Below are positions 9,930 to 16,937 of a stretch of DNA of 64,000 bases, piece after piece; positions within the stretch are counted from its first letter, which is position 1; each line of letters opens with the position of its first letter. The notes beneath the pieces were generated by a model. The model searched no databases. It was not told the origin of the DNA and saw only the letters and a list, made by a program, of their open reading frames with translations. A program made the position numbers and the translations under genes. Source of the stretch: Chloroflexota bacterium (GTDB lineage Bacteria; Chloroflexota; Limnocylindria; Limnocylindrales; CSP1-4); NCBI GenBank assembly GCA_040752335.1, contig JBFMEV010000014.1, positions 575 to 64,574 of the forward strand, read 5' to 3'.

Positions 9930-10763
9930 TCAGGCCGCCGCCGCGGCGCCGCCCGAGACCGGCCGGCACTCCCGGCAGGCCCGGTAGCCGGCGGCGGTGG
10001 CGGCCGCGAGCGACCGGAACGGGACGCGGTGCCGCTCCGTGATTCGCTTCGCGTTGTGGCACGTCGGCAGGCAGACCACGTGGGTCGTGTCCGAGCCGAG
10101 GAACCGGACCCCGGCCCGGGCCGCGATCTCCAGGGCCTCGGGATCCAGGCCCTCGGCGGCGAGGATCGTCCGCTTGGCAGCCGGGCCGCCGAGCGAGTAC
10201 TGGCCGATGGACCCGTCGCTCCGGACGACACGGTGACACGGGACGATGAGCGGCACGGGATTGTGGGCCAGGGCCGTGCCAACGGCCCGCACTGCCTTCG
10301 GTCGGCCGATCTCCGCCGCGATCCAGCCGTACGGCCGGACCTCGCCCCGCGGGATCTCGAGGGCCTTGGCGAGGACCGCGGCCTCGAACGCGGTCCGGCC
10401 CCTCAGGTCGAGCGGGATCCGGACACGCCGGTCGCCGGCGAGGCGGGCGGCGATCGCCCGGGCCAGCTCCGGCGGGACGGCGGCGGCGCGCCCGAGCGGC
10501 CGCCCGACCTGCGCGCCGAAGCGCGCCTCGAAGCCCGCGACGTCGCCCTCGGCCGCGCGGTCCACGGCCGAGACACCGCGGCCGTTCCAGGCGACGACGA
10601 TCGGCCCGAGCGGCGAGGGCAACTCGGCATAGCGGTCGGCAAGGCCAACCTCGACGAGGACGCTCGCGGCGAACGAGGGTGGTGCGGTCGTGGCAAGGGC
10701 GGTCAAGTCGGTCTCCAGTCGGTCCGTGGGGGCGACGGTCGGGCGGGTCGATCGAGGGCTCAT
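9930..10763 (-). CDS. ogt: Methylated-DNA-protein-cysteine methyltransferase with C-terminal Ada-type Zn-binding domain
   Basis: IPRGEVRPYGWIA, AVRAVGTA, NPVPLIVPCHRVV; C-terminus CLPTC-X26-CRECRP with four Cys. Confidence 0.9.
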   Translation of the reverse strand: MSPRSTRPTVAPTDRLETDLTALATTAPPSFAASVLVEVGLADRYAELPSPLGPIVVAWNGRGVSAVDRAAEGDVAGFEARFGAQVGRPLGRAAAVPPELARAIAARLAGDRRVRIPLDLRGRTAFEAAVLAKALEIPRGEVRPYGWIAAEIGRPKAVRAVGTALAHNPVPLIVPCHRVVRSDGSIGQYSLGGPAAKRTILAAEGLDPEALEIAARAGVRFLGSDTTHVVCLPTCHNAKRITERHRVPFRSLAAATAAGYRACRECRPVSGGAAAAA

Positions 10764-11365
10764 GCGGTCATCTCCCCGTGGTTGATGGCGAGGTCGGGAT
10801 CGCTGGCGAGAACGACTCGCAGCTGGGCCAGGCCGCGGCTGACCTGGGCCTTCACGGTCCCCTCTGGGCGACCGAGCGCGACCGCCGTCTCGGCGACCGA
10901 CAGGCCGTCGACGTGGCGGAGGACGACGGCCGAGCGCGGGCCGGGGGGCAGAGCGAGGAGCGCGGCGGCAAGCCCCCGGATCGTCTCGCGCCGTGCCGCC
11001 CGCTCATGGGGCGAAGGCCCGGCCTCGGGGAAGGTCGCGTCCCCACCGGCTTCCACGATCGGCTCCAGCTGGAGCGGCGGCGTCCGCTCGTCGAGGCGCC
11101 GCCGGCGGTTGCGGGCCAGGTTGACGACGATCGAGGCCAGCCACGGTCGGAGCCGAAGGGCCCGGATCCGGTCCGGTTCGTAGCCGGCGATCGCCCGGTA
11201 GGCCCGGACGAAGGCGTCCTGGGCGACCTCCTCGGCATCCCGGGGGTCGCCCAGCAGGCGCAGGGCGATCGAGTAGCAGCGGTCCTGGTGGGCGCGGAGG
11301 AGCGCCTCGAACGACGCGTCGAGGTCGAGCGCGAGGCGATGGGCGAGCGCGACGTCGGTGTCCAT
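10760..11365 (-). CDS. ECF sigma-70 factor
   Basis: Region 2 DAEEVAQDAFVRAY and LRPWLASIVVNLARNRRR; region 4 GLSVAETAVALGRPEGTVKAQVSRGL; stop overlaps ogt start. Confidence 0.92.
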   Translation of the reverse strand: MDTDVALAHRLALDLDASFEALLRAHQDRCYSIALRLLGDPRDAEEVAQDAFVRAYRAIAGYEPDRIRALRLRPWLASIVVNLARNRRRRLDERTPPLQLEPIVEAGGDATFPEAGPSPHERAARRETIRGLAAALLALPPGPRSAVVLRHVDGLSVAETAVALGRPEGTVKAQVSRGLAQLRVVLASDPDLAINHGEMTA

Positions 11366-11451
11366 CGACGTCTTCAACACGGCGGCCGCGACATTCGTTG
11401 CAGTGTGCTCCGCGCCATCGATCGTAGGCGTGCTCGGCCAGGCGGGCTCGG

Positions 11452-12111
11452 TCAGGCGGGCTCGACGACCTCGACCTCGCCGGTCGGCTGGACCAGGAAG
11501 ATCCAGATGTCCCAGGCGACGTGGCTGACGATGAGGGCACCGAGCGGGGCCCCGGCGGCGTACAGCGCACACCAGTGGGCGCCGGCCACCCCGGCCGCGC
11601 CGAGCAGGGTGAAGTTGCCCGACGTCACGTGGACCCCGCCGTAGGCGCCGGCCGCGATCGCGGCTCCCCGCCAGCGCCCGAACCGGCGCATCAGGGCCGC
11701 CTGGATGAAGCCGCGCCAGAAGAGCTCCTCTGCCGGCCCGACGATCGTCGCCAGGCGGGTCGCGATCTCGCTCTGAGGCAGGAGCATCCGGAGGGCGTAG
11801 ATCTCGCGGATCTCGGCGTCGCCGCCTGGGACGAAGCGTCGGGCGAACCGGTCGCCGACCTGGAAGGTGACGTACAGCACTCCCGCCGAGAGCAACCCAA
11901 GCGGAACGTGCCACCATCGGATCCGGGCCCGGCGGGCCGGGCCCGAGAGAAGCAGCGCGAGGCTGCCCAGGCTCACGCCGGTCCAGGTCATCCGCGTCCA
12001 GAACCGCTCGCGCGGGCCCCGGAAGGTCGCCGTGAAGGCCGCGCTCGCGGCGGCCAGCCCGACGGCTAGGGCGAGGGTGCCCGGCCGGTCGTCGACCTCG
12101 CGCTCAGCCAC
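11452..12111 (-). CDS. CPBP (type II CAAX/Rce1-like) intramembrane metalloprotease
   Basis: PAEELFWRGFIQ, YGGVHV, IVSHVAWD motifs; hydrophobic; GTG start inferred. Confidence 0.88.
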   Translation of the reverse strand: MAEREVDDRPGTLALAVGLAAASAAFTATFRGPRERFWTRMTWTGVSLGSLALLLSGPARRARIRWWHVPLGLLSAGVLYVTFQVGDRFARRFVPGGDAEIREIYALRMLLPQSEIATRLATIVGPAEELFWRGFIQAALMRRFGRWRGAAIAAGAYGGVHVTSGNFTLLGAAGVAGAHWCALYAAGAPLGALIVSHVAWDIWIFLVQPTGEVEVVEPA

Positions 12112-12131
12112 GCTGGCCGGTCCCGGGCGGC

Positions 12132-14186
12132 TCAGCCACGCACGACCCCGGCGAGGAGCAGCCCGATGACGAGGAACCCCCCGAAGGCCAGGTGGAGCCT
12201 GGCGGTCTGGAGGTCGATCATCGCGATCGCCCGGGCCTGGCCCGTCGCCCCGAGCTCGGCCGAGCGGACGACCTGGGCGAGAAACGGCAGCGACACGATC
12301 GCCAGGAGCGTCGGCGGCGGCAGGAGCGAGAAGGCGACCGACAGGCCGAGCGTGATGTAGGCCCCCAGGACGAGGGCGACGTAGCCGTAGTGGGCCCAGT
12401 CCTTGCCGACCCGGGACGACAGCGTCACGATGCCGGCCCGGGTGTCCTCGCTGATGTCGCGCCACTCGTTGCCGTGGAGGATGGCGGCCACGAGGAGTCC
12501 CACCGGCACCGACAGAACGACGGCCACAGGGCTCCAGGCCCCGGTCACGGCGAAATAGCTGCCGACGACCATGAGCGGGCCCATGAGCAGGAACACCAGC
12601 GGCACGCCGAGGGCCCGGTACTTGTACTGGAGCGGCGGCGCCGTGTAGCCCCAGCCGCCGATCAGCCCGGCCAGGCCGAGGGCCACGATCGCCGGGCCGC
12701 GGAGGACCACGAGGTACAGGCCCACCGCGACCGCCAGGAGGAAGGCCAGGCCGGCGACCAGGAACGCGCCGCGCTCGGTCATCCGGCCCTTGACGATGGC
12801 GTGGCTCGCCCGCGGCGAGACGATCGTGTCGATGCCCTGGCGGACGTCGTAGATCTCGTTGACGATGTTTGTCCCGGAGTGCAGGAGGACCGCCCCGGCC
12901 AACGCGGCCAGGAACGGCAGCCAGTCGAACCGGCCGTCGACGGCCGCGAGCGCGGCGCCGGCGCTGACCGGGATGACGGATGCCGTGTAGGCGAACGGCC
13001 GGACGATCTCCCAGGTCGCCCCGAGCCGCCGCCGGACGGTTTCCGCGGCGCCGAGGCGCCGGTCGTCGGCGAGCGCCGAAGCAGGCGCCGCCACGACCTC
13101 GGGCGCCACCGTCTCCTCCGGCGCCGGCGCAACCCACCGGGCGGTCGCCGGCAGCTCGGCATACATCGCCGCCGCCGCGATGAGCTCGTCGATCTGGCGC
13201 TCCTCCTGGAGGACGGGCTGGAGGAGCGGCAGGCCCAGGCCCGTCTCGACGTGGAACGCCAGGGCCTTCGCGGCGACGTCCTCGCGAGTGCCGCAGAGCA
13301 TGAAGGCATCGAGGAGCTCGTCGGGAATAAGATTCCCCGCGAGGGTGTAGTCCTCGGCCCGCCAGGCCACGGCGATCCGGTCTCGCAGCTCGACCTCGAA
13401 GCCGGCCCGCCGCAGGGACACGTCGGACAGGACCGACATCATGTAGATGACGAACGGCTCGCGCTTCGCCCGGTTGAGGGCCTCGCGCCGCGTCCGGTCG
13501 ACGAGCGACAGGAGGTAGCCGGCGGTCTCGATCGAGCCCGGGTCGCGACCTGCCTCGATGGCCGAGGCCCGGAGCCGCTCCAGGATCCCCCGGAGCGAGG
13601 GGATCGACTCGGCCGGCCGGGCCAGGTAGCCGTCGGCCTTCTGACCCGCGAGCTCCACGAACGCCCGGCGGTACGCCGCGATGACGAGCGCGATTCGGTG
13701 GGGCGGCGGGAACATCGGCTGGATCGGCGGCAGACCGGGCGTCGCCGACGGCAGCCGCTCGCCGGCCCACAGGGCCCGGATCTGGTCCATCGCGGTGGAC
13801 ACCCGCTCGACGGCTGCATCGGGCTCGTACGGGATGCCCATCTGCTTCAGCCGCAGCGGCAGGCCCGTGCCCAGGCCCATGACGATCCGGCCGGGCAGGA
13901 TTTCGTCGAGGGCCGAGCCAGTCATCGCCAGGACGACCGGATGCCGGGTGAACGGGTTGACCGCGCCGAGGGCGACCCGGAAGCCGCCGTCCTCGTTCTC
14001 GCCGTCGCGGGCCAGCCCGTCGACGACCGTGGTCGCGAACGAGACCGCGTCCCGCTCGAAGTACGAATCGTGGATCCAGAGCGACTCCAGGCCCGCGTCG
14101 CGGGCGCGCCGGGCCCAGTCGAGGACGTCATCCGGATCGTCCCGGGCGGCCAGGCCGAGGCCGATGGGGCGGGCGAGGGTGCGCAT
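12132..14186 (-). CDS. Fusion: N-terminal luciferase-like (LLM, Mer-like) oxidoreductase plus C-terminal UbiA/MenA-type prenyltransferase
   Basis: N-terminus LWIHDSY, AVNPFTRHPVVLAM, GRIVMGLGTG; C-terminus WEIVRPFAYTAS, NIVNEIYDVRQGID, WGYTAPPLQYKY, NEWRDISEDTRAG; one continuous frame through an Ala/Pro linker. Confidence 0.88.
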   Translation of the reverse strand: MRTLARPIGLGLAARDDPDDVLDWARRARDAGLESLWIHDSYFERDAVSFATTVVDGLARDGENEDGGFRVALGAVNPFTRHPVVLAMTGSALDEILPGRIVMGLGTGLPLRLKQMGIPYEPDAAVERVSTAMDQIRALWAGERLPSATPGLPPIQPMFPPPHRIALVIAAYRRAFVELAGQKADGYLARPAESIPSLRGILERLRASAIEAGRDPGSIETAGYLLSLVDRTRREALNRAKREPFVIYMMSVLSDVSLRRAGFEVELRDRIAVAWRAEDYTLAGNLIPDELLDAFMLCGTREDVAAKALAFHVETGLGLPLLQPVLQEERQIDELIAAAAMYAELPATARWVAPAPEETVAPEVVAAPASALADDRRLGAAETVRRRLGATWEIVRPFAYTASVIPVSAGAALAAVDGRFDWLPFLAALAGAVLLHSGTNIVNEIYDVRQGIDTIVSPRASHAIVKGRMTERGAFLVAGLAFLLAVAVGLYLVVLRGPAIVALGLAGLIGGWGYTAPPLQYKYRALGVPLVFLLMGPLMVVGSYFAVTGAWSPVAVVLSVPVGLLVAAILHGNEWRDISEDTRAGIVTLSSRVGKDWAHYGYVALVLGAYITLGLSVAFSLLPPPTLLAIVSLPFLAQVVRSAELGATGQARAIAMIDLQTARLHLAFGGFLVIGLLLAGVVRG

Positions 14187-14302
14187 GGCTGGCTCCAGGT
14201 CGGCGGCTCCGGGCGACGACACCGCCCGTGGCAAGCGCCCACATGCTACCACGGTGTAGCCGGTTATTCGCCAGCCCGCCGGCCGTGCGACAATCGCCGG
14301 CG

Positions 14303-15313
14303 ATGCGCCTCGACGACCGCTTCGACGACCTGATCGCCGCGCTCGGTGGGTTCTACCGAACGTGGCTCGTGTTCCTGGGCGTGGACCTCGGCTTCTTCCG
14401 TGCCATCCGGGCGGCCGGCGACGGAGGCCTCCGGGTCGAAGACCTGGCGCGCCGGACGTCGACCCACCCGCGGGCGGTGGAGACGTGGGCCTGGGCCGCC
14501 GACGCCCACGGCCTCGTCCGCTCCGAGGCCGGCGCCCTGACGATCGATCCGGAGACCGCCCTCATCCTCCTTGACGAGCAGCGCTCGGAGTTCCTCGGCG
14601 GCCAGTTCGTCCACTCGGTGGTGGCCACCCTGGACTGGGACCGGATGATCGACTTCTTCCGGACCGGCGTGCCGATCCCGTCGCGTCCGGACCGCTACAG
14701 GGCGGCGATAGAGCAGGTGACACGCCAGGACATCGCCGTCTTCTTCAGCGAGGGCCTGGCGGCCCTGCCTAACCTGGTCGCCAGGCTCGTCGCCGGCTGC
14801 CGGGTCCTCGACGTCCACTGCGGCGGCGGCCGCTGGCTCGTGGCCATGGCCCAGCGCTTCCCCGACCTCCGCCTCGTCGGCATCGAGGCCGAGCCGGATT
14901 CCATCGCCAGGGCCCGCGAGCTCATCGAGGAGAGCGGGCTGAGCGATCGGGTCCGGATCGAGCCGGTGGCCCGCGACGAGGTCACCCGGCCCGGCCGCTT
15001 CGACCTCGTGTACTACCAGTACGCGCTCCATTTCCTGCCCGATCCGGCAGCCTCGCTGCGGGCGTCGTGGGAGGCCCTCGACCCGGGTGGCAGTCTCGTG
15101 GTCCTCGACTGGCTCCTGCCCACCGATCCCGCCGACATGCGGACGATCCACGGCGAGCTCATCGCCGGCGTCCACCTCGACGAGGTCTTCATGGGCGCCG
15201 GGCTTCGCGACGCCGCCGCGTATCGGGCCTGGTTCGCCACGGCCGGCATCCCCGAGCCGGCAGTCATCGAGCTGCCGTCGGGCGCCACGCTGATCGCCGT
15301 CGATCAGCCCTGA
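14303..15313 (+). CDS. Class I SAM-dependent methyltransferase with N-terminal winged helix (Rv2258c-like)
   Basis: Variant motif I VLDVHCGGG, FDLVYYQYALH, LDPGGSLVVLD; TGc-GACAAT 8 nt before ATG. Confidence 0.85.
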   Translation: MRLDDRFDDLIAALGGFYRTWLVFLGVDLGFFRAIRAAGDGGLRVEDLARRTSTHPRAVETWAWAADAHGLVRSEAGALTIDPETALILLDEQRSEFLGGQFVHSVVATLDWDRMIDFFRTGVPIPSRPDRYRAAIEQVTRQDIAVFFSEGLAALPNLVARLVAGCRVLDVHCGGGRWLVAMAQRFPDLRLVGIEAEPDSIARARELIEESGLSDRVRIEPVARDEVTRPGRFDLVYYQYALHFLPDPAASLRASWEALDPGGSLVVLDWLLPTDPADMRTIHGELIAGVHLDEVFMGAGLRDAAAYRAWFATAGIPEPAVIELPSGATLIAVDQP

Positions 15314-15321
15314 CGGCCGCG

Positions 15322-16149
15322 GTGCTCGAGCCCGTCGTCCCGGGCGAGGCCCTCGCGCGTCGTCTCGCCCGGCACGAGGCGACGGTTCAGGCCGTCGGGC
15401 GAAGGGAGGCCAGGGACCTCGGCGACGGACTCCTGCTCCACGACCCGGCGGACCGCGAACCGTTCTGGAACCGGCTCGCGGCGCCCGCCTGGCCCGACGA
15501 CGTCCCCGCATTCGAGCGCCGCCTCGACGAGGTCGTGACCCTCTTCGCGACGCTCGACCGCCTGCCCCACATCCGGACCCTGCCGCTCGGCAACCGGCCG
15601 GCGGATCTCCCGGCCCGGCTCGTCGCGGCCGGCTTCCGACCGGCCGGGATCGACCGGTCGATGGTCCTCGTGAACCCGGCGGCGTGCCTGGGCCTGGTGC
15701 GGACCCTCGCGTCGCGGCCGGAGCTCACCCTCGAGCACATCGGCCGTGGGCAGGAGCTCCGGGCGATCGAGGCCGCCCGGCTCCTCGTCCAGGCGTTCGA
15801 TGTCGAATCGGACCGGGTCCCGGCGCTCGGCGCGGAGACCCTCGCCGCCGGCCGTCGCGAGGACGGCGCCGTCCTGCTCCTCCTCGTCGACGACCAGCCG
15901 GCGGCGGTGGCGCGGCGGGTCCAGGTGGGTCCCGGCACGTACCTCTCGTCGATCGCGACGGCCCCGCCGCTCCAGGGCCGCGGCCTCGGCTCGCTCATCA
16001 CCGCCCTCGCCGTCGCGGAGGCGCTCGAGGCCGGGACCGCGTTCATCCACCTCCTCGTCGAGGCCGACAACGGGACGGCGATCGGGGTCTACGAGCGCCT
16101 CGGGTTCGTCCTCATCGGCGACCCGATCCACGACCTCCTCCTCCGCTGA
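15322..16149 (+). CDS. GNAT family N-acetyltransferase
   Basis: IATAPPLQGRGLGS, NGTAIGVYERLGF; start approximate. Confidence 0.85.
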   Translation: MLEPVVPGEALARRLARHEATVQAVGRREARDLGDGLLLHDPADREPFWNRLAAPAWPDDVPAFERRLDEVVTLFATLDRLPHIRTLPLGNRPADLPARLVAAGFRPAGIDRSMVLVNPAACLGLVRTLASRPELTLEHIGRGQELRAIEAARLLVQAFDVESDRVPALGAETLAAGRREDGAVLLLLVDDQPAAVARRVQVGPGTYLSSIATAPPLQGRGLGSLITALAVAEALEAGTAFIHLLVEADNGTAIGVYERLGFVLIGDPIHDLLLR

Positions 16150-16185: not shown

Positions 16186-16626
16186 ATGCTCGAAGCCCCC
16201 GGGATCGTCATGCGCCCCGCCGTGGACGCGGACGCGGAGCGGATCGCCGCGCTCTTCACCGACGAGGGCTACCCCGCCGGCCCGTCGGCGGTCGTGGCGC
16301 GCCTGGAGCGCTTCGCCGGGCCGGATTCGGAGGTCGTCGTCGCGGACCGCGGCGGCGAGGTCATCGGGTTCATCGCCTTCCATGCGCTGCCGCGGTTCGA
16401 GCACGACGACGTCGCCGTCCGGATCCTCGCCCTGGTCGTCGACGCCGGGGCCCGCGAGCGAGGCCTCGGCCACCAGCTGATGGCCGAGGCCGAGCGCTTT
16501 GCCCGGGAGCGCGGCGCCGCGTTCGTCGAGGTGACCGCCGGCCGCCACCGGCCCGAGGCGCGCCACCTCTACGAATCCCTCGGCTACGACGCTTCGGTCA
16601 CGGCCTACCTCCGCAAGCGCCTGTGA
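16186..16626 (+). CDS. GNAT family N-acetyltransferase
   Basis: LVVDAGARERGLGHQLM, ARHLYESLGY; TACCAT 6 nt before ATG. Confidence 0.88.
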   Translation: MLEAPGIVMRPAVDADAERIAALFTDEGYPAGPSAVVARLERFAGPDSEVVVADRGGEVIGFIAFHALPRFEHDDVAVRILALVVDAGARERGLGHQLMAEAERFARERGAAFVEVTAGRHRPEARHLYESLGYDASVTAYLRKRL

Positions 16627-16937
16627 CGGCCGTCCCGCCCGCCATCCCGGAGGCCGGATTCGCGATTCGCGTCCGCGACCTGCGGAAGGCCTACGGCGAG
16701 ACCCGGGCCGTGGACGGGATCTCGTTCGAGGTCCGGGCGGGCGAGGTCTTTGGCCTCCTCGGACCGAACGGCGCGGGCAAGACCACGACCGTCGAGATCC
16801 TCGAGGGCCTTCGGTCGCTCCGTCAGGCCATGGTCGGCGGGACGCCGTTCTCGCCGCTTTGGATCTGCTTCGCGGTGCTCGCCGGCTTCCTGGTCGCCTG
16901 CTTCGCGATCTCGGCCCGCTTCTTCCGCTGGACGTAG
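16623..16937 (+). pseudogene. Chimeric relic: N-terminus of an ABC ATPase fused in frame to the C-terminus of an ABC-2 permease
   Basis: RVRDLRKAYG...GLLGPNGAGKTTTVEILEGLRS joined directly to LRQAMVGG...AVLAGFLVACFAISARFFRWT; only 104 aa; no signature motif or Walker B. Confidence 0.8.

Follow-up and report, generated by a model that had tools for sequence, protein, structure and literature searches.

The window, meaning here the whole 64-kb stretch of DNA that was analysed, comes from a soil-dwelling member of the Chloroflexota and carries on its minus strand a gene in which an LLM-type, Mer-like oxidoreductase domain and a MenA-like UbiA prenyltransferase domain are joined in one reading frame. 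The features of the locus are as follows:

12132..14186, minus strand: fusion gene, 684 aa by ORF and translation, with a Mer-like LLM oxidoreductase domain, a linker and a UbiA prenyltransferase domain that is MenA-like
13152..14186, minus strand: LLM domain, fusion residues 1-345, a complete TIM barrel predicted to be cytoplasmic (PDB sequence match, Foldseek, NCBIfam, model)
13050..13151, minus strand: flexible Ala/Pro-rich linker, fusion residues about 346-379 (pLDDT below 50 at residues 355-375)
12135..13049, minus strand: UbiA/MenA-type prenyltransferase domain, predicted to have 9 membrane helices, fusion residues 380-684 (UBIAD1 alignment, NCBIfam, AF2)
12828..12869, minus strand: Asp-rich motif 1, N440...N443-E444-x-x-D447...D453, at the predicted cytoplasmic end of TM2 (35 homologues; UBIAD1 alignment)
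12432..12470, minus strand: Asp-rich motif 2, N573-E-W-R-D577-x3-D581...G585, at the predicted cytoplasmic end of TM6 (35 homologues; UBIAD1 alignment)
11452..12111, minus strand: CPBP (Rce1-like) glutamic-type intramembrane protease homologue, 219 aa, GTG start (sequence, Pfam PF02517)
10760..11402, minus strand: ECF sigma factor, downstream of CPBP (Pfam)
14228..15313, plus strand: divergent class I SAM methyltransferase, 361 aa, with an N-terminal extension of roughly 180 aa (Pfam, NCBIfam)
about 15337..16149, plus strand: GNAT acetyltransferase 1, start approximate (Pfam PF00583)
16186..16626, plus strand: GNAT acetyltransferase 2 (Pfam PF00583)

The fusion ORF starts with ATG (MRTLARPIG...), and the same Met is conserved as the start across 35 aligned homologues. 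Pfam assigned its residues 13-312 to Bac_luciferase (PF00296; E 2e-39, with 136 bits where the gathering score is 27.9) and its residues 404-638 to UbiA (PF01040; E 5e-32, with 111.5 bits where it is 34.2). The start of the CPBP gene lies exactly 20 bp past the TGA of the fusion, and its product passes the threshold of the Rce1-like family PF02517 (46 bits against 22.4). The original prediction had described a 684-aa ORF with both Asp-rich motifs intact, a CPBP gene at this distance, and a SAM methyltransferase and two GNAT genes divergent from the fusion; the Pfam matches, the spacing and the invariance of the motifs bear out this picture.

Reality and spread of the fusion

The same LLM and UbiA architecture was found in more than 2000 homologues. 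Among the loci of relatives (Chloroflexota, class Limnocylindria), 74 of 82 displayed both domains in a single open frame; the rest are contig ends or carry the two halves in different frames, the latter probably due to assembly indels. As raw reads of the exact assembly were not found, the best public run holding at most 9% of the sampled words, the continuity of the linker is argued from independent assemblies. A stop or mis-join in the linker, or orthologues that are unlinked, had been named as a possible weakness, and the one open frame in these assemblies speaks against both. The fusion is real and no assembly artefact.

In the tree, the UbiA domains of all fused proteins group together in a single clade (support 100/100), which shows one origin of the fused forms. 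Identity across loci amounts to 58-92% for the LLM half and 61-93% for the UbiA half, with dozens of invariant residues; the LLM half is conserved about as strongly as the UbiA half, and the architecture is under selection. Throughout the class Limnocylindria the two domains are kept in one gene, which is strongly conserved. The linker varies in length, and most relatives have a longer one than our sequence, by as much as about 25 residues. No description of an LLM-UbiA fusion was found in the searchable literature, in agreement with the earlier statement that a characterised one was not known. Together with its CPBP partner, the fusion is real, widespread and unstudied.

The two domains of the fusion protein

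Sequence comparison places the UbiA domain in the MenA/UBIAD1 clade. Its top NCBIfam matches are all MenA equivalogs, although it stays under their curated cut-offs (TIGR00751, 81.9 against 102.15; NF004749, 152.9 against 277; NF004751, 147.3 against 264); its nearest stand-alone relatives, at 36-50% identity, exceed the TIGR00751 menA cut-off. The only solved structure detectable by sequence is UBIAD1 (8djk), which aligned with the domain end to end (E 6e-25). Both Asp-rich motifs, N443-E444-x-x-D447-x5-D453 (TNIVNEIYDVRQGID) and D577-x3-D581 (NEWRDISEDTRAG), do not vary among 35 homologues and match those of UBIAD1 in the alignment; the leading acidic residue of the first is Glu and not Asp, which lies inside the variation of MenA and UBIAD1. 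The AF2 model displayed 9 long helices at residues 398-682, with a block-mean pLDDT mostly above 85, and placed the N-terminus of the domain and both motifs on one side of the membrane. With a pTM of 0.69, the docking of the two domains is modelled without confidence. MenA itself (TIGR00751 and PRK06080 models) belongs to the same UbiA-superfamily clade and shares both motifs and about 9 membrane helices. In comparison, the fusion has an additional 345-aa N-terminal LLM reductase domain, an obligate CPBP neighbour and NExxD as motif 1. UBIAD1, the animal menadiol prenyltransferase (8djk, 8djm), differs in being eukaryotic, in having neither a fused reductase nor a CPBP partner, and in using separate reductases. 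Its substrate is reduced menadiol and, like it, the fusion enzyme would require a reduced naphthoquinol.

The LLM half is Mer-like, as the original prediction had held. The PDB entry most similar to it in sequence is Mer with bound F420 (1z69; E 2e-26, with about 30% identity along the entire barrel), and the top sequence matches there are F420-dependent LLMs. With Foldseek, Mer took each of the first 8 places (target TM-score 0.81-0.89) and more F420-dependent LLMs came next; the best 24 are all of this kind. After Mer, sequence and fold matches are to FGD, Adf and fHMAD, with FMN-dependent LLMs lower in rank, and the stronger NCBIfam matches are all F420-class LLM families. In the AF2 model, strands and helices alternate and the block-mean pLDDT is about 71-96. 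The invariant residues fall in Mer-like active-site segments (WIHDSYFERD, NPxTRHP, GxGTGLP), signature segments that the domain has in common with Mer (1z69, 8qpl), its best match in both sequence and fold. From its likeness to Mer the LLM half is taken to be F420-type, and it is probably an F420-dependent reductase. It nevertheless stays under every curated F420-family cut-off of NCBIfam, the best being that of Mer itself (NF002619, 116.4 against 276), and a score so far under this equivalog cut-off means that its substrate is surely other than that of Mer. Unlike Mer, this is a bacterial domain, linked to a membrane enzyme; its nearest stand-alone relative (P0142, 49% identity) lies in an unrelated gene context. 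To our knowledge, a quinone reductase of the LLM family has not been described.

The CPBP partner and other neighbours

The catalytic motifs of the CPBP protein are intact (GPAEELFWRG, AYGGVH and SHVAWD, for EExxxR, FxxxH or (F/Y)xxxH, and HxxxN/D of the family). Across 79 orthologues, conservation of GPxEExxWRG, YxxxH and SHxxWD is 90% or higher, and all three are invariant in an alignment of five sequences from different lineages, among them orthologues located next to stand-alone and to PNPOx-fused MenA genes. CPBP is present in all 75 related loci with room for it. Searching from the CPBP side, we found the linkage with MenA in 61 of 68 diverse metagenome loci of 27-70% GC, including a gut Bacteroidales-like contig, with MenG often in the same operon. 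CPBP is the sole constant neighbour, within the class Limnocylindria and far outside it. In passing the threshold and keeping the motifs it resembles the Rce1/CPBP (CAAX protease and bacteriocin-processing) family, from which it differs by the lack of an evident prenylated protein substrate and by a subfamily that travels with a quinone prenyltransferase gene over this GC range. A conserved candidate substrate gene was not seen near CPBP in the related loci, and the linkage of CPBP to a quinone prenyltransferase was not found in the literature searched. Of the role first proposed for this gene, the linkage is genuine, while for processing of prenylated proteins in the eukaryotic manner the family name is the only argument.

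The divergent methyltransferase, the start of which is about 41 bp from that of the fusion, had been counted as part of the system. It occurs in just 23 of 65 related loci with room; it and the two GNATs, which are variably present among relatives, are local neighbours outside the system. As MenG/UbiE the methyltransferase was rejected (22 bits against 158.35 for TIGR01934; 24.6 against 216 for NF001244); it has 29% identity to a true MenG, confined to the generic SAM-binding core, and weak BchU/O-methyltransferase-like matches in Pfam and NCBIfam. The ECF sigma factor was found in 22 of 66 loci, being syntenic in closer relatives only, and the remaining neighbours in related loci are unrelated housekeeping genes. 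No men, mqn or F420-biosynthesis genes lie within the 64-kb window.

A bona fide MenG/UbiE, scoring over curated cut-offs, adjoins the MenA-CPBP module in 18 related or analogous loci in all, four of them from a genome scan. In a sister fusion lineage (L118) the MenG gene is divergent to the module, and in low-GC lineages (L121) the order is menA-CPBP-menG on one strand. Redox domains are also paired with the module in other forms. PNPOx-like domains are fused to another clade of the same CPBP-linked MenA family, and in two loci (L161, L153) an unfused Mer-like LLM lies directly upstream of CPBP with a MenA-like gene convergent to it; in the first of these, a PPOX-class F420 oxidoreductase adjoins, with 110 bits for TIGR03666, whose cut-off is 84.9. 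The PNPOx-like fusion and the unfused LLM beside the F420-class PPOX are independent cases of the same pairing. Non-redox additions, namely Cupin_2 and HTH_17, are likewise found at the N-terminus of members of the same UbiA clade.

A putative role in menaquinone synthesis

In the reading that we favour, and to which we give about an even chance, the fusion is the menaquinone prenyltransferase of this lineage, a divergent MenA with a built-in Mer-like reductase that is probably F420H2-dependent and acts on the quinone ring, and with CPBP as a helper. We infer that the cofactor is F420, that the quinone ring accepts the hydride and that menaquinone is formed. The cytoplasmic reductase domain would be permanently fused to the N-terminus of MenA through a flexible linker of about 35 residues. 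Since the UbiA N-terminus and both Asp-rich loops are predicted to be cytoplasmic, it would be tethered near the prenyltransferase active site. With F420H2 as the hydride donor, it may reduce the naphthoquinone ring and so hold the head group as a quinol. Reduction could come before prenylation, turning oxidised DHNA or a naphthoquinone into the quinol, or after it, turning demethylmenaquinone into demethylmenaquinol for MenG. CPBP, with its predicted catalytic triad of motifs, would act jointly with the prenyltransferase.

The second option has a precedent in phylloquinone synthesis, where ring reduction of demethylphylloquinone ahead of MenG, between the MenA and MenG steps, is an established task of NdbB/NDC1 for which no enzyme of E. 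coli is listed (PMC5299476). Reduction of menaquinone with F420H2 is known from Ddn/FDOR-A, and F420 is made by Chloroflexi (PMC8498797). Both enzymes are functional analogues which, unlike the LLM domain, are a type II NAD(P)H dehydrogenase (NdbB/NDC1) and a split beta-barrel (Ddn/FDOR-A), occurring as separate proteins unfused to MenA. Of the original proposal, a coupled redox and prenylation step on a quinone is the best-supported reading; ordinary menaquinone is a likelier product than a modified quinone or another prenylated aromatic lipid, given that a bona fide MenG flanks the module in other lineages.

A broader reading, possible but rather doubtful, regards the fusion as one face of an unrecognised, phylum-spanning late menaquinone module, the core of which would be MenA and a catalytically active CPBP membrane hydrolase. 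F420-using lineages would have bolted on a deazaflavin reductase, of LLM or PNPOx type, several times independently.

It is unlikely that the fusion serves a UBIAD1-like salvage, in which oxidised naphthoquinone that the cell imports or recycles (menadione-like or 2-carboxy-naphthoquinone) is reduced to the quinol and then prenylated, independently of de novo men or mqn pathways. The need of UBIAD1, the closest solved structure, for reduced menadiol would fit, as would the UbiA scores under the MenA equivalog cut-offs and the absence of head-group genes from the window. The adjoining MenG genes suit de novo synthesis and salvage equally, yet the module occurs universally in a class of free-living soil bacteria whose genomes measure at least about 3 Mb (e.g., chromosome OY970185.1) and which have less reason to depend on salvage.

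Quite unlikely, too, is a regulatory or structural LLM module, sensing F420 or redox state or anchoring a partner, in a protein that is simply the MenA of the lineage. The domain being under all family cut-offs and the non-redox additions on the same UbiA clade are in line with such a role. The barrel is complete, however, with many invariant residues in its Mer-like active-site segments, and flavin- or deazaflavin-type domains have been recruited independently at least three times, which chemistry explains more easily than scaffolding.

Actinomycetota and some Chloroflexota commonly have hydrogenated menaquinones, and a reductase tethered to a tail-handling enzyme might reduce a polyprenyl double bond during tail attachment, as MenJ would, giving partly hydrogenated menaquinones. 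This we regard as improbable: the known isoprenoid saturases, MenJ and GGR, are FAD enzymes of another fold, and Mer-like LLMs have no known reduction of isolated alkenes. As an obligate hydride carrier, F420 moreover serves to reduce bonds that are polarised, such as those of quinones, enones and imines (PMC8498797). Least plausible is a specialised pathway in which fusion, CPBP, methyltransferase and GNATs would make a modified prenylated aromatic lipid and not a respiratory quinone, since, despite the adjacency, the N-terminal extension and the O-methyltransferase-like matches of the methyltransferase, its occurrence and that of the GNATs is patchy, the other neighbours are housekeeping genes, the fusion is conserved class-wide, and true MenG flanks it elsewhere.

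In the favoured reading, that of a menaquinone prenyltransferase with a built-in reductase, the fusion and CPBP set points to an unrecognised redox step and a helper protein in respiratory quinone synthesis. Should the phylum-spanning module be real, CPBP would be a true pathway or hand-over step, with release or delivery of the head group, or the passing of the prenylated quinol to MenG, as candidates, and F420 would be a physiological reductant for quinone biosynthesis.

Locus and integrity of the fusion

The window has a G+C content of about 74%, and ORF and Pfam analysis bore out the original prediction of an LLM-UbiA ORF followed 20 bp downstream by a CPBP gene, with a divergent methyltransferase and two GNATs. 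Residues 13-312 of the fusion match Bac_luciferase (Pfam, E 2e-39) and residues 404-638 match UbiA (Pfam, E 5e-32), both far over the gathering score.

Features of the fusion locus (window positions)
ATG at 14186 to TGA at 12132-12134, (-): fusion ORF, 684 aa (ORF and translation)
11452-12111, (-): CPBP/Rce1-like gene, 219 aa, GTG start 20 bp past the fusion stop (sequence and Pfam)
Downstream of CPBP: ECF sigma factor, Ogt-Ada fusion, EamA transporter (Pfam)
Divergent from the fusion, (+): class I methyltransferase, 361 aa (Pfam)
Divergent from the fusion, beside the methyltransferase, (+): two GNATs (Pfam)

Both Asp-rich motifs, which had been described as intact, are present, with the nuance that motif 1 reads NEIYD...D and begins with Glu where many MenA enzymes carry the first Asp. 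Pfam scanning of 30 ORFs along the window revealed no quinone or F420 pathway genes, and the window contains no men, mqn or F420-biosynthesis gene. At 16602-16937 (+) we noted an ABC transporter remnant, in which residues 4-65 of an ABC ATPase (67% identical to its counterpart in relatives) join directly to the last ~40 residues of an ABC-2 permease. Since relatives have both full ABC genes there, this genome seems to have lost about 1.9 kb by deletion.

The exact window sequence is in no public sequencing run, and linker continuity was judged from independent assemblies in place of reads of this assembly. A search of 5.8 billion proteins uncovered more than 2000 relatives; the best 120 of these are 79-89% identical, every one with both Pfam domains, and belong to Chloroflexota or Candidatus Limnocylindrales wherever named. 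The database names of the relatives are generic, either "LLM class flavin-dependent oxidoreductase" or "DHNA octaprenyltransferase". When species-representative genomes were scanned with a diverse UbiA alignment, 80 loci came up that were 61-93% identical and with few exceptions belonged to Limnocylindria-type MAGs (class confirmed); distant relatives were reached from the CPBP side instead. One of the Limnocylindria loci, L060, lies on a 3.1-Mb chromosome (OY970185.1). LLM and UbiA share one open frame in 74 of 82 loci, the exceptions being contig ends or halves in different frames, probably assembly indels. By this evidence from independent assemblies, the fusion is no mis-join.

Conservation is about equal in the LLM and UbiA halves, and the LLM half has dozens of invariant residues. 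A maximum-likelihood tree built on the UbiA domains unites all fused forms in one clade (support 100/100); the two "stand-alone" rows within it stem from contigs truncated at their 5' ends. The fusion thus has a single origin and has since been retained. The linker (13050-13151) is up to ~25 residues shorter in this genome than in most relatives; it varies freely in length and sequence, in contrast to the two conserved domains. Protein P0128, a candidate for a distant lineage at "55% identity", was rejected as a frameshift-ridden copy with the same synteny on an error-prone metagenome contig.

Character and arrangement of the two domains

The C-domain can be assigned by sequence to the MenA/UBIAD1 type. 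Its best NCBIfam matches are all MenA equivalogs, below cut-off, and its nearest stand-alone relatives (36-50% identity) exceed the TIGR00751 menA cut-off. UBIAD1 is the only solved structure reached from it by sequence, with an end-to-end alignment.

The N-domain aligns over its full length with Mer, the F420-dependent methylenetetrahydromethanopterin reductase (1z69, complex with F420, E 2e-26), sharing the segments WIxDxY..RD, N.xTRxP and GR.V.GLG.G. The eight best PDB neighbours of its model are Mer structures (target TM-score 0.81-0.89), followed in the fold ranking by other F420-dependent LLMs and then, lower, by FMN-dependent LLMs. The stronger NCBIfam LLM matches are all F420 classes, every one under its curated cut-off. 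On these grounds the domain is best described as Mer-like but not Mer. A pathway clue from free relatives of the fused LLM (Rosetta-stone) was also sought and rejected: the closest stand-alone LLM, P0142 (49% identity), lies beside another LLM and an amidohydrolase and not beside MenA, so the free relatives give no such clue.

The AlphaFold2 model of the fusion (mean pLDDT 83.9) has a disordered linker at residues 355-375 and nine membrane helices in the UbiA domain, with the Asp-rich loops after TM2 and TM6. Given nine helices and an N-terminus inside the cell, both loops would be cytoplasmic, which places the soluble reductase, according to the model, on the active-site side of the prenyltransferase, on a tether of ~35 residues. 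With a pTM of 0.69, the docking of the two domains is not fixed by the model.

Conserved partners of the MenA-like protein

CPBP directly follows the fusion in all 75 genome loci with room downstream (among 80), most often with an 8-nt overlap by a crude start-codon estimate. Clustering of all flanking ORFs gave no further conserved neighbour, only assorted housekeeping genes; the ECF sigma factor occurs in 22/66 loci. The methyltransferase, originally proposed as part of the system, was found in just 23 of the 65 loci with room and has to be set aside; as a MenG replacement it was rejected, showing no homology past the Rossmann core. In 79 orthologues the CPBP motifs GPxEExxWRG, YxxxH and SHxxWD show at least 90% conservation, and they do not vary in a cross-lineage alignment of five sequences. 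Because these catalytic motifs are conserved, a purely structural role of CPBP is not favoured.

In three loci (L049, 1089-1898; L064, 6898-7899; L068, 6851-7648) a further gene seemed to separate UbiA from CPBP; this was rejected, as the stretch is an N-terminal extension of CPBP of 200-300 residues, Ala/Arg-rich and partly repetitive. Such extensions occur in some Limnocylindria (e.g., ARQAVGDARQAVGD...) and are in frame with the first membrane helix.

A metagenome scan anchored on the CPBP subfamily and not on the prenyltransferase provided 80 loci, with G+C contents from 27% to 70%. A MenA-like UbiA gene stands immediately upstream of CPBP on the same strand in 61 of the 68 loci whose contigs reach far enough upstream; in two it lies elsewhere in the locus, and in five there is none. 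The prenyltransferases at these loci are mostly stand-alone. MenA-like protein and CPBP thus form a widespread two-gene unit, to which the LLM fusion is a lineage-specific addition. One such pair, on a Bacteroidales-like human-gut metagenome contig of 48% GC (L137, 3084-4591), has as its only named relative a UbiA family prenyltransferase of uncultured Mediterranea (Bacteroidales). The MenA-like protein of L137 scores 83.5 vs. a MenA cut-off of 102, and could thus be paralogous to a canonical MenA in that organism.

True MenG/UbiE genes adjoin the module in several settings, exceeding TIGR01934 and often the equivalog cut-offs too. They lie divergently in a sister fusion lineage ~56% identical to the window protein (L094, L104, L118, L122), and adjoin the fusion in four species-representative genome-scan loci (L055, L077, L081, L084). 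In lineages of 27-43% GC (L121, L117, L114 and others), menA, CPBP and menG stand on one strand. MenG/UbiE follows CPBP on the same strand in L121 (3038-5397), L117, L107, L110, L111 and L114, in the order menA-like, CPBP, MenG/UbiE where the contig allows.

Redox proteins have been joined to the MenA-like/CPBP module on several occasions. Another clade of this MenA-like family carries fused PNPOx-like domains, and CPBP again follows; ad hoc HMMs for PNPOx-like or cupin N-domains gave no match in the 80 CPBP-anchored loci. Putative fusions of N-terminal Cupin_2 and HTH_17 domains to the same MenA-like clade are each known from a single representative (P0201, P0157). Two metagenome loci carry the parts unfused:

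L161, 2477-5541, and L153 (~50% GC): unfused LLM-CPBP-MenA-like module

Here a Mer-like LLM lies directly upstream of CPBP, the MenA-like gene is convergent, and both loci form a very long separate branch in the tree. The gene divergent to the cluster and beside it in L161 encodes an F420-dependent oxidoreductase of the PPOX class (TIGR03666, over the curated cut-off). The MenA-like protein of these two loci has a degenerate second Asp-rich motif.

Proposed function and significance

Taken together, the observed facts fit a menaquinone prenyltransferase with its own hydride-transfer reductase. MenA/UBIAD1-type enzymes require the quinol form for prenylation. Owing to this need, the hydride chemistry of F420 and the NdbB/NDC1 step of phylloquinone synthesis, reduction of the quinone ring, before or after prenylation, is most likely the job of the LLM domain. 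Chloroflexi make F420, which carries hydride obligately, and its reduced form F420H2 is known to serve menaquinone reduction by Ddn/FDOR-A (PMC8498797). In phylloquinone synthesis, NdbB/NDC1 must reduce the demethylquinone ring ahead of methylation by MenG, a reduction to which the listing in PMC5299476 assigns no enzyme from E. coli; the step is analogous to the one implied for the module. The LLM domain could instead saturate the polyprenyl tail, which is chemically less likely for F420.

Neither an LLM-UbiA fusion nor a MenA-CPBP linkage was described in the literature covered by full-text searches, which likewise yielded nothing pertinent on F420 or quinones in Limnocylindria. Menaquinone biosynthesis, an antibacterial target, is regarded as a solved pathway, a view that the present findings call into question. 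In many phyla MenA has a constant, motif-intact CPBP partner, which implies that a component or step is missing, and the repeated independent attachment of F420-/flavin-type reductases indicates that reducing the ring at the prenylation/methylation stage matters in aerobes. If true, this would mean a new housekeeping role for cofactor F420 in abundant soil and freshwater Chloroflexota, and would give a large bacterial CPBP subfamily its first biochemical context.
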